Positions 861 through 25,376 of a DNA stretch of 32,000 nt are shown here, piece after piece (positions within the stretch are counted from its first letter, which is position 1; the number at the start of each line of letters is the position of its first letter). This DNA comes from Candidatus Velamenicoccus archaeovorus. GTDB lineage: Bacteria; Omnitrophota; Gorgyraeia; Velamenicoccales; Velamenicoccaceae. The translations under genes were made by a program, and so were the position numbers. The stretch lies in the NCBI RefSeq assembly GCF_004102945.1, contig NZ_CP019384.1:1650001-1682000 (forward strand), written 5' to 3'. The notes beneath the pieces are model-generated. The model saw only the letters and a program-made list of their open reading frames with translations, ran no database searches and was not told the origin of the DNA.

Positions 861-2348
861 TCACTCCTTGCCGACGTAAGACCTTGTGCCGTGGGATTCC
901 TTCTCGAAATGGCCCACGTTATTCATGAAATCCCTCACACACAAGCCGACGAGGGGATCGTAATTGCGGTTATGCATGGCCCTCTGGATACGGCCCGGTT
1001 TTGAATAAAATTCGCGGAACGCCCAGGAACCAAGGTCCGCTATCTCCGGGACCGTCAGGTGGTTCGTCGGGATGATCGGCTGATGAAAATCCCACTGTCT
1101 GATCTTTTTGTTGAGGTCTTCCAGACGCAAGAGGCCTTTTTTGGTTGCCTCCTCCCAGATCGGCGATCCGGGGATGGGCGTCAAAAACTGAAGGGCGATG
1201 ATGTCCGGATCGACCTCATCGACAGCCTCAAAGCGCGCCTTGATCTTCTCTTCGTTATCGTCCTCGAAGCCCATCATCCAGGTCAACACCGTCGCGATCC
1301 CGGCTTCCCTGAGTTTCGCCACTGTTTCCTTGACCTGCTCGACGGTAATGCCTTTCTTGATCTTGCGCAGCTCCTCATCATCGGCGACTTCCAGGCCCAC
1401 AAGGCACATAAAACAGCCGGCACGCCGCAGGTCCTTGAACAAATCGATATCGCGGATAAAATACGGCGCCCTGCCCAACGGCATCCATTTCATCTTGTTG
1501 TCGCGACGCAAACACTCCTCGATCGTCTCTTCCACGCGCGAACGATAAACATTATACGTATCGTCCATCATGACAATGACACGCGTGCCGTGCTTTTCGT
1601 ACAAAATCTCCATTTCGTCGACGACCTTCTTGCCGGAACGATAGCGGTAATTTTTCAGGTCCTGATGCCCCCGGGGGTCATACTGGCCCCATTCATAGCA
1701 AAAGGTGCAGGCCGCCGGGCACCCGCGGGAATTCCACGTCTCCGAATAATTCTTCCAATAGGTATGGCTGACGTAGACATCCATGGGAAACAGATCGTAG
1801 GCCGGCATAGGCAAAGTGTTCAGGTCCTGGATGAGGGGCCGGTATGCATTGAGGGTGATCTTGCCGTTATCGCGCCAGCAGATACCCTTGACGCCGGCGA
1901 TGTCCGGCTTGGTCTTGACCAGCTCTTTCAATAACTCGCTCAACGTCAGCTCCGCTTCCCCTGCGATACAGAAGTCCAGGTGCGGATTTTCCTTCATGGT
2001 AAATTCCGACGCTGAAGCATAAAAGATGCCGCCGACGATGATCTTGACATGAGGATAGCGCTCCTTGATCTTGCGCGCCGCCTCATTGTAAATGAAAACA
2101 ACGGCCAATCCTCCGGTCGTATGCAGAATATCGCCGAGATAAACGATGTCGGCGCCGGACTCTCCCACCTTGTCGAGCATCTGCGCTTCCGTCAGGCCGT
2201 AGGCGCGGCAATCCAGGACGGCGAGCTCCAAGTCCGGGTTATGCTGACGCAAGAAACCCGCCAGCTGCGCATGGCCGATATTGATGGCTTTATGCGTTCC
2301 CCATGTCGCCCAGGCGCCCAACGGCGGTTGAACAAATAAAATCTTCAT
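861..2348 (-). CDS. B12-binding domain radical SAM enzyme (paralog 1)
   Basis: 495-aa ORF. The N-terminal Rossmann-like cobalamin-binding region reads MKILFVQPPLG...IVGG. The radical SAM cluster motif is SRGCPAACTFCYEW (CxxxCxxC). AAGGAGG lies 7 nt upstream of the ATG at 2348. It is roughly half identical to the ORF at 13862-15334 by eye. Confidence 0.9.
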   Translation of the reverse strand: MKILFVQPPLGAWATWGTHKAINIGHAQLAGFLRQHNPDLELAVLDCRAYGLTEAQMLDKVGESGADIVYLGDILHTTGGLAVVFIYNEAARKIKERYPHVKIIVGGIFYASASEFTMKENPHLDFCIAGEAELTLSELLKELVKTKPDIAGVKGICWRDNGKITLNAYRPLIQDLNTLPMPAYDLFPMDVYVSHTYWKNYSETWNSRGCPAACTFCYEWGQYDPRGHQDLKNYRYRSGKKVVDEMEILYEKHGTRVIVMMDDTYNVYRSRVEETIEECLRRDNKMKWMPLGRAPYFIRDIDLFKDLRRAGCFMCLVGLEVADDEELRKIKKGITVEQVKETVAKLREAGIATVLTWMMGFEDDNEEKIKARFEAVDEVDPDIIALQFLTPIPGSPIWEEATKKGLLRLEDLNKKIRQWDFHQPIIPTNHLTVPEIADLGSWAFREFYSKPGRIQRAMHNRNYDPLVGLCVRDFMNNVGHFEKESHGTRSYVGKE

Positions 2349-2510
2349 TCGTATCCTCCTTAATTTTGCCTATATTGAGGTTTCTCTTCCTTACAAAATT
2401 AACTCCGCGGCTTGCGCCGTAAATTTTTGCCGGATGGCCGTCCTGGCGAAGCCGACGGCCTACCCTGGAAAAATTGACAAGCGTTGAGACAAGGGATAAA
2501 CGCTTATTCC
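2349..2510 (-). repeat. Intergenic cassette copy 1 (hairpin module plus promoter/RBS-like core) before radical SAM paralog 1
   Basis: The core on the minus strand is ACCTCAATATAGGCAAAATTAAGGAG (2381..2356), preceded by TTGTAA (2396..2391). A long AT-based stem (2421-2433 with 2464-2475) encloses GGCCGTC/GACGGCC (2436-2442 with 2454-2460) and the motif AGGGTAGGCC. Confidence 0.7.
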
Positions 2511-6751: not shown

Positions 6752-6850
6752 AATAAACCCCTCAATTTCTGCTGAATGTGTTTGTCTGAAATTGACCCCG
6801 AGCCCTCCCCTCCCTGACGTCTATCGCAGAGGCGAGGGGCCTTTCTTCTC
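6752..6850 (-). repeat. Element B copy 1 (hairpin plus conserved 29-mer) before the SRPBCC cyclase gene
   Basis: On the plus strand, ctcaatttc..gctgaatgtgtttgtctgaaattgaccccga...gcgaggggcc spans 6759-6841. The same blocks recur at 25188-25267. Confidence 0.65.
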
Positions 6851-9777: not shown

Positions 9778-11042
9778 TATTGACCCTCCTGGTAACGCTT
9801 CATGACCAGAGACGAATGGATCCCGGAAAATCCGCTCGATGTCTTCAGGATCAAGTCCACCTTTTTCTCAATCGCTTTGTTAGGAATGTAATTCAGGTCG
9901 CACTGCGGATCGCGCACCTCCTGGTTGATCGTCGGAGGAATCAGGTTGCGCTCGAAAATGATGGAGGCCATCACCATCTCGATGGCATTGGCCGCCGCCA
10001 AGGGGTGGCCGATCATGGATTTGAGCGAACTGATCGGTATGCGATACGCCTCTTCGCCCAGGGCGATCTTGTAGGCATTGGTCTCAAAGACGTCGTTCAT
10101 CCGCGTCGAGGAACCGTGCGCATTGACGTAATCGATATCCTTGGGCGCGATCCGGGCGTCCTTGAGCGCGAGCGTGATGCAATTCGCCATGGCCAGGCCG
10201 TCGGCCGGAAGGTCCGTCATGTGGAAAGCGTTATTACAGGTGCCGTAACCGATGATCTCGCAATAAATATGCGCCCCTCGCTTTTTAGCATGCTCAAGTT
10301 CTTCCAAGACCAGAATGCCGCATCCTTCGGAAAGCACAAAGCCGTCGCGTTTGTTGTCAAACGGCCGCGAGGCCTTCTCCGGCTCATCGTTCCTGGCGGA
10401 CAAGACGCTCACCACGTCAAAGGCGCCGAAGGTGATGGGCGTCAGGGGCGCTTCCGAGGCGCCCGCGATCATGATATCCGCGTCACCGTCGGCGATCGTT
10501 TCAAAACAGAACCCCATGGAATCGGTCCCAGCCGTGCATCCGGTCGATATCGTATTGCAGATACCATTGAGATGGTATTTGGCGGCAATCTCGGCCGAAG
10601 GCGTATTGAACATGGAGGCATCATAAAGGTAAGGCCGCACAAGGCGGGGATCGATGGGATTTTTGCCGTTATCCGTCACCAGCGCGAATTCTTCTTCCAT
10701 GTATTTGGTGCCGCAGATGGCATTGGCCAGGCTTACGCCGGCGCGCTGCCTGTTGATCTTTGAAAAATCCAGCTTGGCGTCTTTGACCGCCATCTGGGCC
10801 GCCACGACCGCGAACTGCACATAGCGGTCCATCCGCTCCGCTTCTTCTTCATTCAAGCCCAGCTCGAACGGATTGAACTCCTTGGAATAAGCGGCGATCC
10901 GCGTGCGGAACATCGAGACATCAAACATATCGACCCTGCGCACGGCGGAAACGCCGCCGACCATGGCCTTCCAGCAATTTTCTTTTCCGATACCGTTGGG
11001 CGATATGACACCCAGGCCTGTCACCACAACTCGTCTCTTCAT
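9777..11042 (-). CDS. Ketosynthase alpha (type II PKS-type KS)
   Basis: Active-site ISTGCTAGTD, with the His residues in AFHMTD and NAHGSST. I prefer the start at MKRRVVVTGLG (ATG 11042, AAGGAG 8 nt upstream). The 21 extra N-terminal residues in the track ORF come from an intergenic repeat. Confidence 0.9.
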   Translation of the reverse strand: MKRRVVVTGLGVISPNGIGKENCWKAMVGGVSAVRRVDMFDVSMFRTRIAAYSKEFNPFELGLNEEEAERMDRYVQFAVVAAQMAVKDAKLDFSKINRQRAGVSLANAICGTKYMEEEFALVTDNGKNPIDPRLVRPYLYDASMFNTPSAEIAAKYHLNGICNTISTGCTAGTDSMGFCFETIADGDADIMIAGASEAPLTPITFGAFDVVSVLSARNDEPEKASRPFDNKRDGFVLSEGCGILVLEELEHAKKRGAHIYCEIIGYGTCNNAFHMTDLPADGLAMANCITLALKDARIAPKDIDYVNAHGSSTRMNDVFETNAYKIALGEEAYRIPISSLKSMIGHPLAAANAIEMVMASIIFERNLIPPTINQEVRDPQCDLNYIPNKAIEKKVDLILKTSSGFSGIHSSLVMKRYQEGQ

Positions 11043-11203: not shown

Positions 11204-11836
11204 CTATTTGTCTTTTTCTTCCACTCTCGTCAATTTGAAAACAACATGGCCGCCGTCGGGACACGTCAGCGTATCCAATGAATCCGGGTTTTCCATGAAC
11301 GGATATGACGCCCCGAAATTCAATGCAAACAGCGTCGGGAACATCATATGATAGGCCGCCCCGCAAAAGCCGTCGGGGCACTTGAGCCCTTTGACACGGA
11401 TCTTGTCGCCGATCTCGTAGCCATAATGACACTTGCCTGTGCACTCCTTGATTTCGATGTCCATGGTCTTGGGGTTCGGGCCCGCGGGTGCCGCGCTTCG
11501 GGGCTTCGCCAAAACATTTCCTTGTTCATCAATGACTTCGATCAAAAATTCCACTTTCTTTCCGTCCGGACACGTCGTACGCAAAGACCGCGTGTTTTCC
11601 ATAAAAGGGAACTCTGCACCGAAAGTCAAGGCATACATCGCCGGGAACATCGAATGCACCGCCCCCAGACAGAAATCTTTCTGCGGATGGGTAAAATCCT
11701 CGAAAACAAACTGGTTGCCCACCTCATAGTGGTGATAACAAAATCCTTCTTTCTTGACGACGGTCGCGCGCAAGCGGCAGAATTTCATCCGCAGTCTCCG
11801 CCGCAGCGCCCCAAATGTCTGTTTTTTCTCTTCCAT
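11204..11836 (-). CDS. Tandem-duplicated TIGR04076-like Cys-rich protein
   Basis: Two internal repeats of about 95 aa share C-[HY]-H-x-Y-E-[VI]-G ... FC-x-[GA]-A-x-H-x-MFP-x-x-x-AL-x-FGA-x-x-PFMEN-x-x-SL-x-T-x-CPDG. I prefer the ATG at 11836 (GGGAG 6 nt upstream) over the GTG at 11878. Confidence 0.65.
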   Translation of the reverse strand: MEEKKQTFGALRRRLRMKFCRLRATVVKKEGFCYHHYEVGNQFVFEDFTHPQKDFCLGAVHSMFPAMYALTFGAEFPFMENTRSLRTTCPDGKKVEFLIEVIDEQGNVLAKPRSAAPAGPNPKTMDIEIKECTGKCHYGYEIGDKIRVKGLKCPDGFCGAAYHMMFPTLFALNFGASYPFMENPDSLDTLTCPDGGHVVFKLTRVEEKDK

Positions 11837-11887
11837 CTTAAACTCCCTGTCTCCTCGAGGCCCCCTCAAAAAACGCACAGCCTGATA

Positions 11888-13593: not shown

Positions 13594-13869
13594 CTAACGG
13601 GGCAGATTGTATTTCTTATAATCAAAGCCCACATCGTCCAGGAGCTTGATCATCAAAGAATAGAACTGCATAGGCACCTCGGAGAACATGGCGCGCATCA
13701 GATCCTCTTCCTCGACGGTCCTGGAGCCGCGCGTCTTGGCGTTTTGTTCCGCCTTCTGGGTGGCGCCGACCTCCGTCATGTGCCGATGGAAAATCGGCAT
13801 CTTGGAGAGCATCTTATTGAAGCGCTCTTCCGTCGTCTTTTCCCAACTCATGGTGATATGCTCAGACAT
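13594..13869 (-). CDS. PCP_red (protochlorophyllide reductase subunit B C-terminal-like) small protein
   Basis: 91-aa ORF. SWEKTTEERFNKMLSKMPIFHRHMTEVGATQKAEQNAKTRGSRTVEEEDL fits the W..eA...l..iP.F.R......E..A...G...vt.e.l pattern. AGGAG lies 6 nt upstream. The ORF overlaps the radical SAM stop by 8 nt. Confidence 0.55.
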   Translation of the reverse strand: MSEHITMSWEKTTEERFNKMLSKMPIFHRHMTEVGATQKAEQNAKTRGSRTVEEEDLMRAMFSEVPMQFYSLMIKLLDDVGFDYKKYNLPR

Positions 13870-15334
13870 ACAAATCTCCTTTAGTGGCCGCAGCCTCGAA
13901 CTTGGAGATGTTCGCCATATAGTCCTTGACGCAGAGTTTGGCCAGATCTGAATAATTGCCGGCCATGATCCTATGGATACGGTGGGGCCTTGAGAAAAAT
14001 TCCCTCATGCACCAGGACCCCAGACGCCCGACCTCTTCGACGGAAAGGTGTTTAGTCGGGACAACCGGATGCTGAAAATCCCAAGCCTTGAGGCTGATCT
14101 TGGCTGGATCCAGCAGGCCCTCCTTGACGACCTTCTTCCAGAGGGGAGATCCGGGCACGGGTGTCACAAACTGCAACGCAAAAATATCCGGGTCCACCTG
14201 ATCGGCAAATGAAAACCGTTTCTTGACGGCTTCCTCCGTATCATCCTCAAAACCGATCATGAACGTCCCGATCGTCGCGATATTATTCCTGCGCAGGGCA
14301 TCAACGGTCTTCTTGATCTGCGAAACCGTCACCCCTTTGCCGATCCGCGACAACTCGGCATCATCACTGACCTCAATGCCGACCAACCCCATGAACATAC
14401 CGGCCTGCTTCATCAAGGGAATCAAATCCTCCTGTCTCGACCAGTCGTCCGCACGGCCGAGGATCACCCAATTGATCTTGATGCCTTTCTCGAGGATGCC
14501 GTTACAGACATCCTTCACCATATCGTAATTCACGTTAAAGGCGTCATCCTGAAAGACGACGGTCTTGACGCCGAATTTTTTCGTCAAGAGCTCCAGTTCT
14601 TCGACGATCCGGCCGGCGGAGTGCGAACGCCAGGAGACAAAATCCTGCGGAAAGCGCGGATCATACTGGCTCCATTCATAACAGAAAGAACATCCGCCCG
14701 GACACCCGCGGCTGGTAAAAAGCTCGCAGAAATTCGTCCAGTAGGTGTGCGCCACGTATTTCTCCATAGGGAACAGATCGTAAGCAGGTAAAGGAAGAAC
14801 GTCGATATCCTTGATCAGCTCCCTGTGGGGGCCGACCGCGACCTGCCCGGCCTTGCGGGACGCCAGACCGGCGATGCGGGAATAATCCGCCCCTTTTGCG
14901 TCGTCGAGCTTGCGCAGCAATTCATCCAGCGTCTGTTCGCCTTCCCCGATCAGGACAAAATCGATCGCCGGATTTTCTTCCAATGTTTCCCGATAAAGGG
15001 CTGAATACCACAGGCCGCCGACGGCCACCTTGCTATGCGGACTCACCTCTTTGACGGCCTGGGCTATTTTGTTAAAATGCCAGATGACCGCCAGTCCGCC
15101 TGTCGAATGCAGGATATCGCCCAAAACAACAAGGTCGGGCCCGATATCCTTGATCTTCGCCTTGATGCCGTCGTAGGTAAGATCGAGCGCGCGCGCATCC
15201 ACGACAAAAGGCTCTCCGGACTGTTTTTGCCGGACATAGGCCGCCAATTGGGCATAATACTGGTTAGGCGCCTTGATCACGCCGTGCGTCGCCCATCCAC
15301 CGATCGGAGGCATGATGAACAATACTTTTTTCAT
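13862..15334 (-). CDS. B12-binding domain radical SAM enzyme (paralog 2)
   Basis: 490-aa ORF with cluster motif SRGCPGGCSFCYEW. It is collinear with the ORF at 861-2348 along its whole length. GAGGAG lies 6 nt upstream of the ATG. Confidence 0.9.
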   Translation of the reverse strand: MKKVLFIMPPIGGWATHGVIKAPNQYYAQLAAYVRQKQSGEPFVVDARALDLTYDGIKAKIKDIGPDLVVLGDILHSTGGLAVIWHFNKIAQAVKEVSPHSKVAVGGLWYSALYRETLEENPAIDFVLIGEGEQTLDELLRKLDDAKGADYSRIAGLASRKAGQVAVGPHRELIKDIDVLPLPAYDLFPMEKYVAHTYWTNFCELFTSRGCPGGCSFCYEWSQYDPRFPQDFVSWRSHSAGRIVEELELLTKKFGVKTVVFQDDAFNVNYDMVKDVCNGILEKGIKINWVILGRADDWSRQEDLIPLMKQAGMFMGLVGIEVSDDAELSRIGKGVTVSQIKKTVDALRRNNIATIGTFMIGFEDDTEEAVKKRFSFADQVDPDIFALQFVTPVPGSPLWKKVVKEGLLDPAKISLKAWDFQHPVVPTKHLSVEEVGRLGSWCMREFFSRPHRIHRIMAGNYSDLAKLCVKDYMANISKFEAAATKGDLYV

Positions 15335-18039: not shown

Positions 18040-18528
18040 TTATGCTCCCGGATTCTGTCCTTGCGTGCGGCCGACAAGGCTCATCGGCACTTCTTCCAGC
18101 AAAGGGACATATGTCTTGATCTTCGACGACGTCACCTTCATCCCCCCAATCTTTAACAGGTCGGCGCCCTTCGCCTCGCGCGGCATGGCGCCCTCATGCA
18201 AAACGACCGGGATCCGATGGGTGTGGGCGCAGAGGGCCGCGATCAGGGAACCCGTGCGGCAAAGCGCGACATCGTTTTTCCGGCCTTGCGCAAAGATGTG
18301 GACGGCGCTCACGAGTTTCCTTTCCATACAAAACGCCATCATATTATCGCAGATGACGACCGGCTTGACGCCGCGCCCTATGAGTTCTTTGGCGACGTCT
18401 TTCATGCCTTCCAAGGCCGGCCTCAATTCCGCCACAAAGACCTTTTTCGCCTTGAGTTGCGCGTAAAAATCCTCCTGCGGCACGCCGAAAATAAGAGGTA
18501 TTTGTTCTTTAACGAGCATGAATCGCAA
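18040..18528 (-). CDS. Truncated IF-2B/MtnA-family paralog (C-terminal Rossmann half only)
   Basis: 162-aa ORF. VFVAELRPALEG...VVICDNMMAFCM...CRTGSLIAALCAHTHRIPVVL parallels the ETRP..QG...LI.DNA...ANKIGTY..A..A....IPFYV region of the neighbouring MtnA-like protein. It lacks the GxDR Asp and the N-terminal domain. Confidence 0.6.
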   Translation of the reverse strand: MRFMLVKEQIPLIFGVPQEDFYAQLKAKKVFVAELRPALEGMKDVAKELIGRGVKPVVICDNMMAFCMERKLVSAVHIFAQGRKNDVALCRTGSLIAALCAHTHRIPVVLHEGAMPREAKGADLLKIGGMKVTSSKIKTYVPLLEEVPMSLVGRTQGQNPGA

Positions 18529-19477
18529 TATGTTTTGTCACCCATTGGTGCGGCACGACGTCGAAACCCGGATAAAAAGCGGCTGTGCCTTCAGGCGCAA
18601 GATTCCTGCCGGCAAAACACAGGATCTCTTCGTCCCGACGCACCTCGATCGGGATCTCGCGGCCTGAACTTAATTTGTCCGACGACTGGACAAGCACGTA
18701 AAAAGGGATGCCGAAATGCCGGGCCAGAAGAGCGATCTGATATGTCCCTATCTTGTTGGCGAAGTCGCCGTTGGCCGCGGAACGGTCGGAGCCGACAAGG
18801 ACGCAATCCACGTCACCATCGCTCATGACCTTGGCCGCCGCATTGTCCGGGATAAGCGTCACATCAAAACCCTCCCGTTTCAGTTCCCAGGCGGTCAGCC
18901 GCGAACCCTGAAAATAAGGCCGCGTCTCCGTGGCCAGAAAACGGACCTTCTTTTTTGCCTTTCGGCAGAACTCCGCGACTAGGGGCAGCTCGCCGGAGAC
19001 GTTGCAGTGCGTCAATACCGTGGCGCCGTCCTTGATCAATGCGGCAGCTTCCTGGGCCCTTTGATACCTCTTCTGCCTGATCCCCTGCTCCAAGAAACCG
19101 TTCATGGCCGAAATAAAATCCTGACGGAACATGGGACTTCCGGAGACCTTGCGCGCCACCCCCAGCACCATGCCCGTCACTTCCTCGAAGGGAAACGTGG
19201 GACGGCTCCTGTTGAAGGCCGCGGCGACGCGTTCAAGCAAACGCATCTGCGCACCGGCCGAAAGCCCGTCGGCCTTCTGCATCTCCAGCATGAACGTATA
19301 GCAGACGGTCAAAAACTGCCCGAAGGCGCGCGTCTTCATCGTCACGACCGCGTCGATCGCCTGATGATAATGACGGACCTTCAGGTAAACGATCCGCTGC
19401 GGTATCTTTGTCTCGTCTAAGATATAAAGCGTGCGGCCCTTCAGATGCACGGGCCAAAAGAGAACAGATTCTTTCAT
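18509..19477 (-). CDS. MtnA-type (IF-2B family) sugar-1-phosphate isomerase
   Basis: 322-aa ORF with LTHCN (catalytic Cys), ATETRPYFQGSRLTAWEL, VGSDRSAANGDFANKIGTY and IPFYV. No SD sequence precedes the ATG. Confidence 0.85.
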   Translation of the reverse strand: MKESVLFWPVHLKGRTLYILDETKIPQRIVYLKVRHYHQAIDAVVTMKTRAFGQFLTVCYTFMLEMQKADGLSAGAQMRLLERVAAAFNRSRPTFPFEEVTGMVLGVARKVSGSPMFRQDFISAMNGFLEQGIRQKRYQRAQEAAALIKDGATVLTHCNVSGELPLVAEFCRKAKKKVRFLATETRPYFQGSRLTAWELKREGFDVTLIPDNAAAKVMSDGDVDCVLVGSDRSAANGDFANKIGTYQIALLARHFGIPFYVLVQSSDKLSSGREIPIEVRRDEEILCFAGRNLAPEGTAAFYPGFDVVPHQWVTKHIAIHAR

Positions 19478-19686
19478 TAATTTTGCCTATACTAGGGTCC
19501 TTTTCCTCGCAAAATTAACCCCTGCCCGCCTTTGGGCGGGCGAGTCTACGCAGGAAATTTACGCCGGATGGCCGTCCTGGCCGGCTACGCCAGGCCGACG
19601 GCCTAGCCTTGGCGGAAATTTCCAAGTGATTAGACGCAAGGGTAACCTTAATATCCTTAATTTTGCCTCTACCGAGGTATTATTCC
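19478..19686 (-). repeat. Intergenic cassette copy 2, with a core at each end, before the MtnA-like gene
   Basis: Cores lie at 19476-19498 (TATAGGCAAAATTA directly followed by the ATG) and 19654-19678. Stem 19553-19567 pairs with 19607-19623 and encloses GGCCGTC/GACGGCC (19570-19576 with 19597-19603). There is an extra hairpin CCCGCC-tttg-GGCGGG. Confidence 0.7.
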
Positions 19687-20439
19687 TTATGACCCTTGCG
19701 CCAGCTTCTTGACCGCATCCAGGCACACCTTGACCACCCTGGCCTCGGCCTCGTAATAATCCGGGTTGATGAAACCGAGCTCGCCGGTGATCAGATTATC
19801 GCTGACGGCCGAGATCGAGGCGGCCTTGACATTGTTCAATTGCGCGATCGTCAGAAGCGCGCTCGACACCATGTCGACGGCCACGGCCCCCTCTTTTTTG
19901 ACCTTCTCGATCAATTCCCGGGTCTCGCGCAACAGCGCATCCGTCGTCCAGATCAGTCCTTTGCGGATCGAGACCTCGTTTTCTTTGGCCGTTGCTTCCA
20001 GGGCCGCCGTCACAGACACATCCGTCACTGTTTTATAATCCTTGTCCACGTAATAGGGCGTCACACCGTCGCCGCGCACGACACCTGTGGCCAGGACGAC
20101 ATCGCCGACCTTGATGGTCTCATCCAGGGCGCCGCAGGAACCGGCCCGGATGATGCACTCGACCTTCCCGGCGCACAGGATCTCGGCGATGATCGCGGAA
20201 TCCGGCGAAAACCGCCCGCCGTTGCCGACGGCGATCTTGATGCCCTCATAAAAGCCCGTATACATCGTATATTCAAAAAAGGAAAAGCTCTTGACCGGTT
20301 TTTCCAGATGCTCCAGGATCGCATCTCGGCGCTCGGCCGTGCCCGGAATAATGGCATACTTGCCGAAATCTCCCGGCTTGACTTGGACCATTCCCAGAAG
20401 ATCCCGACCTGTCAAATGGATGTCTTTCTTCATCTGCAT
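19687..20439 (-). CDS. PNP/UDP-family nucleoside phosphorylase
   Basis: 250-aa ORF with IIPGTAERRDAI, RAGSCGAL and VGDVV, laid out like hexameric PNP/Udp/MTAP-type phosphorylases. AAGGAG lies 7 nt upstream of the ATG. Confidence 0.8.
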   Translation of the reverse strand: MQMKKDIHLTGRDLLGMVQVKPGDFGKYAIIPGTAERRDAILEHLEKPVKSFSFFEYTMYTGFYEGIKIAVGNGGRFSPDSAIIAEILCAGKVECIIRAGSCGALDETIKVGDVVLATGVVRGDGVTPYYVDKDYKTVTDVSVTAALEATAKENEVSIRKGLIWTTDALLRETRELIEKVKKEGAVAVDMVSSALLTIAQLNNVKAASISAVSDNLITGELGFINPDYYEAEARVVKVCLDAVKKLAQGS

Positions 20440-20560
20440 AGTGAACTCCTTAATTTTGCCTATACCGAGGTTTTTTCCTTACAAAATTAACCCCGAAGCT
20501 CGCGAAAAAAATTTATTGCCGGCCTACCCTGGCAATAAATTTTCGAGCGTTTGAGCAAGG
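20440..20560 (-). repeat. Intergenic cassette copy 3 before the nucleoside phosphorylase gene
   Basis: Core at 20446-20471, and TTGTAA at 20484..20479. A perfect 12-bp stem AAATTTATTGCC/GGCAATAAATTT (20509-20520 with 20531-20542) has the loop GGCCTACCCT. A U-run follows it on the minus strand. Confidence 0.7.
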
Positions 20561-20906
20561 GGTCTTTCTTAACAATCGTCCGTCTCTGACGGGGTTAGGC
20601 CCTCCGCTATGTGGAATGCGGAGGCCTACCCTTTCTGGGTTAACTCCACCACCCGGCCTCATCGGATTGGCCGGTGTGCCGCTTCCTGCGGCGGTGTATC
20701 TTGAGAATTTCTGGATGCACCTGGCCCCAGCTGAACGGGCCAGTGTTCCGCTTTCTGCGGAACCCGTCCGAACTCTGTGAGGACTGGTCGCAGACAGATA
20801 TTGACAAAATGCAAACGCGAGGAGTAAGGTTAATTTCCTTCATTTTGCCTATATTGAGGTAGTTTTACCTTAATTCCTGCCTACAACAGGTTATTCATCA
20901 CAAAAG
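20561..20906 (-). promoter_or_regulatory. Long structured non-coding leader (candidate cis-regulatory RNA)
   Basis: Two more core copies lie at 20835-20860 and 20867-20891. Nested hairpins follow: GTTCCGC/GCGGAAC (20745-20751 with 20757-20763), GCCGC/GCGGC (20678-20682 with 20688-20692), CCGGCC/GGCCGG (20653-20658 with 20669-20674) and GGCCCTCCGC/GCGGAGGCC (20598-20607 with 20618-20626). No convincing ORF is present. Confidence 0.5.
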
Positions 20907-22433
20907 TTAACATTTTTCCCCCACATTCACGTCATTCTGTCTCAACGCCACCTTGTCGATCTTGCCGGTCCTCGTCTTAGGAAGAGTATCGACGAAAACA
21001 ACGGTGTGGGGGATCTTAAAATGCGCCAGGTGCTGGCGGCAGAATTGCTTGACGTCCTGATCCGTGAGCGCTGTGCCTGTCTTCAGGACGATAAACGCCT
21101 TCAATGCTTCTCCGCGCAGCGCGTCGGAGACACCGATAACCCCGACTTCCGCCACGGCCGGGTGCTTGTGGACCGCCTCTTCGATTTCCGCCGGAAAGAC
21201 AATCTGGCCGGAAACCTTGACCATGTCTTTCTTGCGGCCGGCGATATAATACATGCCCTCTTTGTCCCGGCGGCCCAGGTCACCCGTATGGAACCAGCCG
21301 TCCCGCAAGACTTCTGCGGTCAGGGCGGGGTCCTTGTAATAACCGTCCATGACCACCCAGCTCTTCAGGACGATCTCCCCGATCTCGCTTTCGGGCACGT
21401 CCTGGTCGTCATCGTCGACCAGGCGGACGCTGATCCACGGCGCCGGCCTGCCGATAGACTCGATCTTCTCGGACCCCATGGGCGTCACGATATTCGGGGC
21501 GTTTGTCTCGGTCATCCCCCAGCCGTTAAGCAGCTTGGCATTCGGGCAATAGGTCTTGAAGCGGCGGATGGCGTCGGGTGAATTCGGGGCGCCGAAGACG
21601 TTGACCCACCGGATGCTGGAAAGGTCGTATTTCTCGAATTCCTTGAGGTGCAGGAGGGCGTAATACATCGACGGCACCATGTGAAAACAGGTCACCTTGT
21701 ATTTTTCTATATTTTTGAGATACTCGACGGGAATGAAGCGTTCCATGAGAATGAGGGTGATGCCGTAAAAAATGCAGTTCTGCAGGTAGACCAGTCCGCC
21801 GCCGTGCGACAACGGCAAGGCCGATAATTTCACGTCGGACGGCGTCAAGTCCACGAAAAACTCCATCGCCTCCGGCGCCGCGTTCAAATGCCGGTAACTC
21901 AGGCAAACCCCTTTGGGGCGGCCGGTCGAACCCGAGGTGTACAGGATCAAGGCGGGATCGGATGCGCCGATGGACGCCGAGGGAGCTTTGGAAGACCCCT
22001 GGGCAACGAAGTCATCGAAAGAAAGATATCCTTCTTTGCGTTCACGCGCAAGAAGGATATCCTTGAGCTTCGGCACGTGCGCCTTGATATTCTCCAGAGA
22101 AACATCAGGCCTGCTCTTGGCGACGAGAAGGACGGAATCGGAATGGTTTAAGCAGGCTTCCAGCTCATCATTCTTCAGCATGAAATCGAACGGAACGACG
22201 GTGGCGCCGATAGAAAACAAAGCCAGGTAGGCGTAAATATATTCCGGCCAGTTCGGCAGATACAAGGCGACCTTGTCGCCCTTCTTGACCCCCGAGGCCG
22301 TCAGATTGTTGGCGAGCCTGAAGACCCTGTCTTTGAGCTCACCGAACGTAACAGGCTTGTCTTCAAAGATAATAGCGGCTTTTTTTGGAAAAGCAGCCGC
22401 CTGTTTTATCACCAAGTCCCGGATTATCTGCAT
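20907..22433 (-). CDS. AMP-dependent acyl-CoA synthetase/ligase
   Basis: AMP-binding motif YTSGSTGRPKGV, plus WGMTE, GWFHTGD and the C-terminal PKTRTGKI. The start is ambiguous. I prefer the ATG at 22433 because the GTG at 22460 would place a strong hairpin inside the coding sequence. Confidence 0.88.
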   Translation of the reverse strand: MQIIRDLVIKQAAAFPKKAAIIFEDKPVTFGELKDRVFRLANNLTASGVKKGDKVALYLPNWPEYIYAYLALFSIGATVVPFDFMLKNDELEACLNHSDSVLLVAKSRPDVSLENIKAHVPKLKDILLARERKEGYLSFDDFVAQGSSKAPSASIGASDPALILYTSGSTGRPKGVCLSYRHLNAAPEAMEFFVDLTPSDVKLSALPLSHGGGLVYLQNCIFYGITLILMERFIPVEYLKNIEKYKVTCFHMVPSMYYALLHLKEFEKYDLSSIRWVNVFGAPNSPDAIRRFKTYCPNAKLLNGWGMTETNAPNIVTPMGSEKIESIGRPAPWISVRLVDDDDQDVPESEIGEIVLKSWVVMDGYYKDPALTAEVLRDGWFHTGDLGRRDKEGMYYIAGRKKDMVKVSGQIVFPAEIEEAVHKHPAVAEVGVIGVSDALRGEALKAFIVLKTGTALTDQDVKQFCRQHLAHFKIPHTVVFVDTLPKTRTGKIDKVALRQNDVNVGEKC

Positions 22434-22453
22434 AGCCACATACTTTCCCTGGG

Positions 22454-22484
22454 GCCCCACGGGTATAGTCCGTGGGGCTTTTTT
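22454..22484 (+). terminator. Intrinsic-terminator-shaped hairpin, oriented on the plus strand
   Basis: GCCCCACGG (22454-22462), a 7-nt loop, CCGTGGGGC (22470-22478), then TTTTTT (22479-22484). On the gene-sense (minus) strand it is an A6-preceded 5'-UTR hairpin with no U-tract. Confidence 0.4.
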
Positions 22485-22530
22485 GATACGCCCTCGCCAG
22501 CCGCTTACGACGGACAGAAAATTCTGGCAA

Positions 22531-22597
22531 ATTAGTAAAATTTTACTAATTAAATTTTAGTATGTCAAGAATTATTCTTGTTTTGTTTTCACAAAAC
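22531..22597. promoter_or_regulatory. Three dyad-symmetric operator candidates overlapping the promoter
   Basis: ATTAGTAAAATTTTACTAAT (22531-22550) is a perfect 20-bp palindrome covering the -10 box. CAAGAATTATTCTTG (22566-22580) abuts the -35 box. GTTTTGT-tttc-ACAAAAC lies at 22580-22597. Confidence 0.45.
22540..22568 (-). promoter_or_regulatory. Sigma-70-like promoter candidate for the biosynthetic locus
   Basis: The minus strand reads TTGACA (22568..22563), a 17-nt spacer, then TAAAAT (22545..22540). It sits in an AT-rich gap between the PadR stop and the acyl-CoA ligase start. Confidence 0.5.
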
Positions 22598-22654
22598 CTT
22601 AACTATCATATTTTCAATTAGTTGTGTGGATATCTCTTCAGAAGAAAACTATGG

Positions 22655-23215
22655 CTAAGAGGAATGGGGCCACTCGGGGATATTGATATTCTTATTGGTA
22701 AGCTCCTGGCTGACGTTTTGGATGAACTTTTTTTCAGCGCGCAGAAGCTCCAGATTGTGCTCGACGATGGAATGAAGATGGTAGGACGACTTCACCTGAA
22801 GTTGTTCGGAAAGCTTCCCTAAGGCCTCCTCGACTTTGGAGAGGACCCGTATCCGGCCCTTGAGCCGCCTCAAGGCGACATCCGGCGGCAGATAGGGCAG
22901 AAAATAAAGAGCAACGTCGATACTGAAATTCGGGCGGTCGGCCGTCAAAAGACTTTTCGTCAACAACTGCTGGAAGCGTTCATGCCCTTTGGGCGTCAGG
23001 CTGTAGATGAATTTTTCCGGCCTTGTGCCGCCGGTACTGACCGCCTTCTTGAGATATCCCTTTTTTTCAAGGAGGTTGAGGGAGTAATAGATCGATTCGA
23101 CTTCCAACGCGGCAAACGTGCTGATCACGTCCTTGATCTGTTTTTTGATCTCGTAGCCGTGCCGCGGCTTATCCTCCAAGAGCCCCAGGATGATCAATTC
23201 CTGCTCAATCTTCAT
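22655..23215 (-). CDS. PadR-family transcriptional regulator
   Basis: The N-terminal winged helix LIILGLLEDKPRHGYEIKKQI...ESIYYSLNLLEKKGYL is followed by a C-terminal helical domain. GGAGG lies 10 nt upstream. Confidence 0.85.
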   Translation of the reverse strand: MKIEQELIILGLLEDKPRHGYEIKKQIKDVISTFAALEVESIYYSLNLLEKKGYLKKAVSTGGTRPEKFIYSLTPKGHERFQQLLTKSLLTADRPNFSIDVALYFLPYLPPDVALRRLKGRIRVLSKVEEALGKLSEQLQVKSSYHLHSIVEHNLELLRAEKKFIQNVSQELTNKNINIPEWPHSS

Positions 23216-25180: not shown

Positions 25181-25270
25181 ATCTTCCTCTCAATTTCCCG
25201 CTGAATATGTTTGTCTGGAATTGACCCCGACGCTTCGGTCAGCGCTCTTCCCGGAAGCGAGGGGCCGTTC
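25181..25270 (-). repeat. Element B copy 2 before the LysM/YkuD gene
   Basis: gctgaatatgtttgtctggaattgaccccga matches copy 1 with 2 mismatches. The flanking ctcaatttc and gcgaggggcc are shared, while the central part differs but still forms a stem (CGCTTC/GAAGCG versus CCTC/GAGG). Confidence 0.65.
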
Positions 25271-25376
25271 ACCACCGCACCTACGCATCAAAAATCACTT
25301 CGAGGCTTCTATCCATCTCGAAAAGCAAAAAGCTTCCTTTTCGCAAAGCCATATTCTCGAAATCCCGGAAAATCGC

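Follow-up and report, generated by a model that had tools for sequence, protein, structure and literature searches.

Hairpin cassettes preceding SAM-related genes of Candidatus Velamenicoccus archaeovorus are probably composite interspersed repeats that carry the Shine-Dalgarno sequence of the downstream gene

What kind of element recurs, as a string of hairpins, directly in front of a few genes of one locus? The question is raised by a 32,000-nt stretch of Candidatus Velamenicoccus archaeovorus (contig NZ_CP019384.1, positions 1,650,001 to 1,682,000; hereafter the window), an organism belonging to the Omnitrophota, which to our knowledge is a phylum without cultured members. A full cassette precedes just three of the approximately 30 genes in the window, namely B12-radical S-adenosylmethionine (SAM) gene 1, an MtnA-like isomerase gene (mtnA) and an MtnP-like phosphorylase gene (mtnP), and an earlier sequence-only reading had offered two explanations, a reused unit of terminator, promoter and ribosome-binding site (RBS), or a cis-regulatory RNA common to genes whose products consume SAM or dispose of its by-products. 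The SAM link was suspected because the phosphorylase, isomerase and aldolase genes of the region form a trio that resembles the dihydroxyacetone phosphate (DHAP) shunt for 5'-deoxyadenosine. Our analysis leads elsewhere: the cassettes are probably lineage-restricted composite interspersed repeats of a narrow Omnitrophota clade, akin to BOX elements or bacterial interspersed mosaic elements (BIMEs), which carry the Shine-Dalgarno (SD) sequence of the gene that follows. Their unusual trait is a strict sense orientation in which the 3' end of the element is the SD of the next gene.

The three cassettes were all present where they had been placed, on the minus strand, and the description of their parts holds for the AT-rich stems, for the optional GGCCGTC...GACGGCC insert and for the fourth unit (20598-20632), as it does for the apical motif, which reads AGGGTAGGCC at 2457-2466, 20521-20530 and 20623-20632 and AGGCTAGGCC at 19600-19609. 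The CCCTTG said to open the cassette is also there, but it is really one strand, the 5' one, of the stem that closes the large hairpin, and its partner is the GGGG/GGAG that immediately precedes TTAAT. Within the window the 19-mer TATAGGCAAAATTAAGGAG has five matches at up to three mismatches (none in 100 shuffles), GTTAATTTTGYRAGGAA has three exact matches, and a 37-nt core was returned five times by a repeat search; two half-cassettes, at 19654-19690 and 20836-20872, are additions to the copies described earlier.

Parsing of the spacers, together with a looser search, allows a full module to be written as D1 + D2 + UAAGGA(GG). D1 is a long imperfect palindrome closed by (A/U)CYCC...GGRG, which holds an AAATTT-rich stem and a variable apex, the latter often a GTAG-tagged, GC-rich hairpin resembling repetitive extragenic palindromic (REP) sequences (hairpin type GGGTAGGCC). 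D2 is a hairpin with the base TTAAT...ATTAA, situated upstream of UAAGGA(GG). At least two types of module can be told apart, along with half-modules: in the H type, which is the cassette as first described, D2 runs TTAATTTTG, yrAGGAA..ACCTCnnTATAG, GCAAAATTAA, while in the U type it is the compact TTAATCTCGCC-AGA-GGCGAGATTAA, i.e. a GCC-AGA-GGC loop. An intermediate form occurs at L004 (L-numbers, L002 to L043, are our labels for loci from related genomes). Modules may be stacked, L009 and L008 carrying H-U-U and H-U-H strings; in L009 an H-U-U string stands before a small zinc-ribbon open reading frame (ORF) and another string before a thioredoxin-like gene. They may also be nested, as in L002, where a GTAG-tagged hairpin lies within the D2 loop. 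Most modules that come first in a string are preceded by an AAGGA-like sequence, often overlapping a stop codon. The copies in the window, all on the minus strand, are as follows.

2346..2361, minus: SD AAGGAGG, formed by the 3' end of the module, with a 6-nt spacer and the ATG of the radical SAM gene.
2357..2507, minus: H-type module copy 1, between the amidohydrolase stop and B12-radical SAM gene 1; 5' leader ATAAGCGTT..., AT-rich stem 2467-2477 / 2420-2431, apical GTAG-tagged hairpin 2437-2463, and a short GCAA-loop hairpin.
2394-2402 and 2360-2368, minus: terminal hairpin of copy 1, TTAATTTTG / CAAAATTAA, with the AAGGA end.
19474..19653, minus: H-type module copy 2, before the MtnA-like gene; apex AGGCTAGGCC with the longer GGCCGTC...GACGGCC hairpin, then a GCCCGCC-CAAA-GGCGGGC hairpin; the terminal hairpin ends ...CAAAATTAATG, with the start codon fused into the motif.
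19654..19690, minus: half-cassette (mini-module), directly after the phosphorylase stop, reading TAAGGA followed by ATAATACCTCGGTAGAGGCAAAATTAAGGA, without the 5' strand TTAATTTTG.
20437..20452, minus: SD AAGGAG, spacer and ATG of the phosphorylase gene.
20447..20570, minus: H-type module copy 3, before the MtnP-like phosphorylase gene; apex AGGGTAGGCC without the GC-rich palindrome.
20571..20835, minus: long U-type module; its terminal hairpin is degenerate, and its nested hairpins carry the loops AGAAA/AGGAA and TCCGAT.
20598-20632, minus: GTAG-tagged hairpin GGGTAGGCCTCCGC...GCGGAGGGCCTAA inside the long U-type module, which is the fourth unit mentioned above.
20836..20872, minus: half-cassette after the acyl-CoA ligase stop, TAAAACTACCTCAATATAGGCAAAATGAAGGA.

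Long U-type modules were seen at 20640-20835 of the window (minus), at L009 6241-6536 and at L036 9523-9990, with nested hairpins whose loops are conserved (CGC-AGAAA-GCG, CGC-AGGAA-GCG, and GGCnn-TCCGAT-nnGCC with stems that covary). A 67-codon ORF that starts at 20841 displays no conservation in the homologous long U-type copies; it is probably spurious and the long U-type module non-coding. Two copies in L002 depart from the common plan, a solitary D1-type palindrome in the opposite orientation within a promoter-side spacer (674-749, plus) and an H-like module without an SD in a 3' untranslated region (UTR) position upstream of a terminator (954-1068, minus), the latter with a perfect 14-bp terminal hairpin TTGTTTAGCCCGCC-CTTA-GGGCGGGCTAAACAA. 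From these solitary and SD-less copies it follows that D1 is able to exist apart from the SD-bearing part.

The earlier suggestion that the cassette contributes an RBS was correct: modules end in UAAGGA(GG), and in the module-preceded genes that were measured the ATG follows 6-9 nt after AAGGA. All 31 terminal motifs lie on the gene-sense strand and none on the opposite strand, and D2-bearing copies, located in intercistronic spacers or 5' UTRs, are always sense to the downstream gene. It is the last module of a string that supplies AAGGAG(G), a strong SD, ahead of the ATG; the SD of module genes comprises 6-7 nt, as against mostly 4 nt in other genes. Copy 2 of the window lacks a canonical SD because the MtnA-like ATG arises inside the cassette (GGCAAAATTAATGAAAG, window 19475-19491), where AATGAA, which includes the mtnA start codon, takes the place of the SD. 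This in-cassette ATG is shared by relatives that have the mini-module, and relatives with an empty junction use an AAGGG within the 3' end of mtnP.

Selection on pairing, which the sequence-only reading had argued from stem changes that preserve complementarity, is borne out. In an alignment of 12 H-type modules RNAalifold predicts 31 pairs, 11 of which display compensatory double changes; 95.6% of cells are paired, as compared with 38-58% for slid partners, and the covariation score was reached by none of 500 shuffles. When 25 terminal hairpins of both types were pooled, 90.5% were paired, with UA<->CG swaps at three positions. Further compensated stem variants are TTCATTTTG/CAAAATGAA, TTGATTTTG/CAAAATCAA (in L039) and TTGGTTTTG/CAAAACCAA (in L004), and GTTAATTTTG is complementary to, and pairs with, CAAAATTAA. 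Stem pairing would also persist in a palindromic mobile element, however, and the folding z-scores (-1.3 to -5.3 on the sense strand) are similar on the antisense strand.

The genes that receive a module beyond the window were sought by an exact scan for the core motif over one genome per species, which returned nine loci from four other metagenome-assembled genomes (MAGs), with several sites each: Omnitrophota UBA6210, another Omnitrophota MAG, and two labelled 'uncultured Planctomycetia'. The downstream products, as assigned by Pfam, are ribosomal protein L19, ClpP, the gamma subunit of pyruvate:ferredoxin oxidoreductase (POR), a 4Fe-4S delta-like subunit, desulfoferrodoxin, an M48 peptidase, a thioredoxin-like protein and a DUF975 protein; a diverged copy precedes a rubredoxin-like ORF, an assignment made from its translation (MEKWECTVCGYIYDP) only, without Pfam. 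An RNA dedicated to SAM metabolism thus fails on gene context, the very ground on which the sequence-only reading had proposed to judge it. The comparison with Rfam that it had recommended gave no family at gathering score in the window or in six module-rich related loci, and a permissive search of 19300-21000 returned matches at chance level only (E > 1). A metagenome scan in which the 3' stem was left unspecified yielded 22 matches, all attributable to chance, and no new copies; no viral contig matched. Loci chosen through MtnP orthologues, and so independently of the motif, held modules at the ligase-mtnP-mtnA site only, per approximately 20 kb, and those with MtnP at 62-86% identity held no detectable module in approximately 83 kb. 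The lack of matches in these more distant relatives and in the metagenome and viral scans therefore confines the module family to a narrow clade. We found no published description of such a family.

The same MtnP-based loci reveal how rapidly modules come and go. At the mtnP-mtnA junction an empty state (...CAAGGGTAGGCCATG, with a 3-nt spacer) is seen in the six relatives L032-L037, whose MtnP is 99-100% identical; L038 and L039 carry a 31-nt mini-module only, and the window carries 209 nt, i.e. the mini-module and a full H module. The ligase-mtnP spacer measures 106 nt (one U module), 139 nt, approximately 140 nt (one H module), 436 nt or 467 nt, with a different module content each time, and yet each strain variant retains a hairpin, AAGGAG and ATG before mtnP. 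The clearest case is the pair L038 and L039, which have identical MtnP and flanks that are approximately 99% identical, and in which a U module in the former stands where the latter has an H module; the swapped segment spans the last ~10 ligase codons to AAGGAGCT..ATG, and its left breakpoint lies at AATAAYGTTA, which resembles the 5' start of a module. At the site of B12-radical SAM gene 1, an additional block of ~145 nt, with ...TTAAGG at its end, distinguishes L003 (flanks 87-89% identical), and copy 1 of the window is 85-86% identical to non-orthologous UBA6210 copies but 67% identical to the copy at the orthologous site. In L042, whose MtnP is 78% identical, a wholly different repeat (TCTTAACGCTAATGATCGCGAATCAAACGCGAATAATCGCAAATATATTCGCGTAAATTAGCGTTAGATTAGCGTAAAT, at 9880-10000 and 10757-10849) occupies the same ligase-mtnP and mtnP-mtnA junctions, which suggests that the positions before start codons are hot-spots for lineage-specific repeats.

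A small number of sub-modules in variable number and order, strain-variable presence and predicted stable stem-loops are features of BOX- and BIME-type repeats, and the likeness can be followed further. GTAG-tagged REPs, defined as short palindromes that carry GTAG at one end and whose stem measures 5-13 bp and loop 2-20 nt, vary between strains and have been reported from the Planctomycetes-Verrucomicrobia-Chlamydiae (PVC) superphylum (Di Nocera et al. 2013, PMC3733652). The apical unit at window position 2463, aggGTAG GCCGTC ggcttcgccag GACGGC, agrees with that definition, as an apical sub-element only; it is identical in three copies of L008, has a long-loop variant in L009, and in its strict form occurs five times in 212 kb, always inside an H module. 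Like BIMEs, the modules combine the GTAG apex with other conserved motifs, in presumably transcribed spacers of co-directional operons, and vary in copy content between strains. Unlike REPs, they include parts (D1, D2 and the SD tail) that are not REP-like, they lie immediately upstream of start codons rather than mostly downstream of genes, part of their GTAG is predicted to pair (GGGT/ATCC), their copy number appears to be low, and none was found to have beside it a REP-associated tyrosine transposase (RAYT), the kind of enzyme that mobilises REPINs. BOX elements of Streptococcus pneumoniae (boxA-boxB(n)-boxC, described together with RUP and SPRITE) include boxA and boxC sequences reported to influence expression of the downstream gene, and the same source also names enterobacterial repetitive intergenic consensus (ERIC) sequences and Correia elements (Croucher et al. 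2011, PMC3049150). With BOX the modules have in common a modular composite build, a variable number of sub-units, lengths of tens to hundreds of nucleotides, predicted RNA stem-loops, strain variability, mutual nesting and, as we would expect for the modules, co-transcription with neighbouring genes. They have no sequence kinship to BOX, which belongs to another phylum; their strict sense orientation and an SD end at a fixed distance from the start codon are not described for BOX, and the terminal inverted repeats, target-site duplications and cognate insertion sequence known for BOX were not found for them.

Correia elements (CREE/NEMIS) and ERIC sequences (IRU) are small repeats that are co-transcribed into mRNAs, form long hairpins and alter transcript processing or stability, and Correia elements can supply expression signals to adjacent genes. 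These elements differ from the modules in that they furnish promoters or RNase sites rather than an SD, in that their terminal inverted repeats are defined and TA is duplicated at the target, and in that they may be inserted either way round. Engineered RBS insulators of the RiboJ type, which place a hairpin or ribozyme directly 5' of the SD and are synthetic and self-cleaving, share with the modules the layout of a stable structure right upstream of a strong SD, a layout that would decouple translation initiation from the upstream sequence. Two further comparisons went no further: integron attC sites were ruled out, as neither GTTAATT nor GTTAACC matches the core site GTTRRRY, and binding of a CsrA-type protein (AAGGA in a loop, together with the SD) was given low weight, the U-type loops being AGA and GGA motifs being far sparser than in RNAs of the CsrB/RsmZ type.

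If the modules are interspersed repeats, they would spread or be exchanged through insertion or recombination at (T)AAGGA sites that resemble an SD or overlap a stop codon, would be co-transcribed with the gene downstream, and at the RNA level would form a generic leader of hairpins and a strong SD that could change mRNA stability or translation and would sense no ligand. The closing stem of D1, ACTCC...GGAGT, could be read as a terminal inverted repeat, and (T)AAGGA often borders a module at either end. Several observations nevertheless weigh against this interpretation. No transposase was found near any module, the approximately 210 kb of module-bearing DNA contain no RAYT-like gene at all, and no clear terminal inverted repeat, clean target-site duplication or insertion sequence was found. 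Module density, at approximately 1-2 sites per 20-30 kb, is unlike that of classical high-copy REPs. U copies are 93-94% identical between genomes in which coding DNA is ~79% identical, and the unpaired segment TATAGGCAAAAT is nearly invariant, which together speak for selection at the sequence level and would suit a functional RNA or protein-binding site as well as a mobile element. G.U pairs outnumber A.C pairs by a small margin (10:4 and 11:7), which favours the sense strand weakly, and the SD accessibility predicted by partition-function folding, 0.50 for module genes and 0.40 for non-module genes, does not differ significantly (p = 0.28).

RAYT-like proteins of the Y1_Tnp family are widespread in Omnitrophota, with homologues commonly 60-80% identical, and one source names a member RayT. 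The one copy examined, at L041 2452-2934 (minus), lies between ComM-like and QueC-like genes in a region free of modules. It encodes a 160-aa Y1 transposase that belongs to PF01797 and has the motifs NHIHLI and YVEQNPVRA, and the palindromes on either side of it are of the GAAACAGTTTCC type, unlike the modules. A bolder form of the repeat interpretation, to which we lend tentative credence at most, holds that the modules are portable ribosome-binding sites, i.e. mobile structured repeats that home to junctions between (T)AAGGA and GG, at sites which resemble an SD or overlap a stop codon, where the 3' end of the module would complete a perfect SD. Each time a module was inserted, lost or exchanged, the translation or mRNA stability of a single gene within an operon would be retuned in that strain, with mobilization possibly by RAYT-like Y1 transposases.

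The strongest of the other explanations is that the modules serve as a general-purpose mRNA leader, recognised by a trans factor such as an endoribonuclease, a global RNA-binding protein or the ribosome, recruited to highly expressed or stress/redox genes, maintained by selection and duplicated by recombination rather than selfish. In favour of such a leader are the U modules, better conserved between genomes than coding DNA, and the conservation of unpaired loops (TATAGGCAAAAT, AGA, TCCGAT and AGAAA) while the stems covary; the strict sense orientation and the hairpin, AAGGAG and ATG kept before mtnP in every strain variant would be expected as well, and many of the targets are concerned with redox or proteostasis (desulfoferrodoxin, the rubredoxin-like ORF, the thioredoxin-like protein, POR, ClpP and an HtpX-like protein). 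On the other hand, a single site may hold either an H or a U module, the mtnA junction is empty in some relatives, genes for L19, DUF975 and biosynthetic radical SAM proteins form no obvious regulon, the solitary D1-type palindrome of L002 has the opposite orientation, and no trans factor was identified. We consider this leader unlikely, though it deserves to be kept in mind.

That the cassettes divide the locus into transcription units, as terminator, promoter and RBS in one, is more doubtful still, and beyond the RBS the earlier proposal is unsupported: the scanner finds neither a sigma-70-type promoter nor a sense-strand terminator in the window cassettes, and the T-run that follows the AT stem belongs to that stem, pairing with the upstream A-run. 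It could be said for the terminator that the stable hairpin of D1 leads into the U-rich UUAAUUUUG, and two H modules of L008 are indeed flagged as weakly terminator-like, because their closing stem is followed by TTAATTTTG; partial attenuation may occur there. The highly conserved ACCTCnnTATAGG could likewise be a promoter of an unrecognised type, but the spacing between GTTAATTTTG and TATAGG varies, U-type modules without TATAGG and ACCTC hold the same position, and this organism uses a canonical TTGACA-17-TAAAAT elsewhere. The latter is the only strong promoter in 19300-22800 (22568->22540, 11/12) and lies upstream of the acyl-CoA ligase gene; in L008, TTGTCA-16-TATAAT (11/12; 3655->3628) precedes a four-module string that leads to the M48 peptidase gene, and in L004, TTGATT-17-TATAAT (7580->7552) precedes a U module. 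Since such canonical promoters lie upstream of the module strings, which stand between them and their genes, the modules sit inside 5' UTRs or intercistronic spacers. Two candidate promoters, a T7-like CTCAnTATAGG and a Bacteroidetes-type TTTG-N19-TAnnTTTG, were dropped, as U-type modules without either motif occupy the same place and the genomes use canonical sigma-70 promoters.

A riboswitch-like RNA for genes that consume SAM or clear its by-products may be set aside as highly improbable, for although three full window copies of a covarying structure precede B12-radical SAM, MtnA-like and MtnP-like genes, outside the window the genes that follow a module mostly have nothing to do with SAM, no copy precedes the window's other radical SAM gene (13862-15334), the mtnA junction is empty in six close relatives, whole modules are replaced between L038 and L039, and no Rfam family matches, the SAM and S-adenosylhomocysteine classes included.

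The genes of the region are all on the minus strand. PadR comes first, followed by acyl-CoA ligase, the PNP_UDP phosphorylase, the MtnA-like isomerase, a short IF-2B-like ORF, class II aldolase-SCP2, aldehyde dehydrogenase, a B12-radical SAM gene, a ketosynthase pair, cyclases, an MFS transporter, SDR, CBM11, amidohydrolase and, last, a second B12-radical SAM gene. The 250-aa MtnP ORF of the window has no exact database record, the recorded form being P0001 of 249 aa. A conserved Omnitrophota cluster is apparent from window 861-22460 and L032-L043, comprising PadR, acyl-CoA ligase, the DHAP-shunt-like phosphorylase/isomerase/aldolase-SCP2 trio, aldehyde dehydrogenase, the B12-radical SAM gene, a ketopantoate-reductase-like gene, the ketosynthase pair, in places an acyl carrier protein (ACP), and cyclases; synteny from PadR to the cyclases persists down to 62% MtnP identity, and the cluster may represent a lipid or polyketide pathway that incorporates 5'-deoxyadenosine salvage. 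A perfect palindrome of 18 bp, TTAGTAAAATTTTACTAA, lies just downstream of the PadR gene and overlaps the promoter TTGACA-17-TAAAAT (window 22532-22568, minus); it looks like a putative PadR operator that would govern the long downstream cluster. The second IF-2B-family ORF (~155-162 aa; window 18040-18528, minus) overlaps the end of the MtnA-like gene, is annotated as a separate gene in all relatives but L043, and may have arisen by the splitting or duplication of an isomerase domain. Within an unannotated 224-aa ORF (11204-11878), a direct repeat of 81 nt whose copies are 72% identical (window 11270-11350 / 11576-11656) is probably the internal duplication of a protein repeat. A second upstream repeat, unrelated to the cassette, has the form GGCCCCTCGC...hairpin...TCGGGGTCAATTYCAGACAAACAYATTCAGCRGRAAATTGAGRGG followed by a start codon, and occurs at window 6752-6850 and 25181-25290 (minus), before a polyketide-cyclase-like gene and a LysM/YkuD gene (36 nt, 89% identity), and also at L004 844-902; it is 87% conserved in UBA6210, its 3' end is the SD-like GAGRGG, and it has no Rfam match.

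These results remove a false riboswitch lead, and demonstrate that covariation in a repeated hairpin upstream of related genes is insufficient evidence for one; gene context and the comparison of orthologous sites were decisive. Such repeats will mislead gene callers, through spurious small ORFs such as that of 67 codons, as well as assembly and screens for noncoding RNA in these MAGs. The modules turn over between strains faster than the genes around them diverge. If they were truly portable ribosome-binding sites, they would constitute an SD-targeting class of repeat without a described counterpart, and if they affect expression at all, the expression of single genes within operons would be able to vary rapidly through them, and they would be nature's equivalent of engineered RBS insulators.

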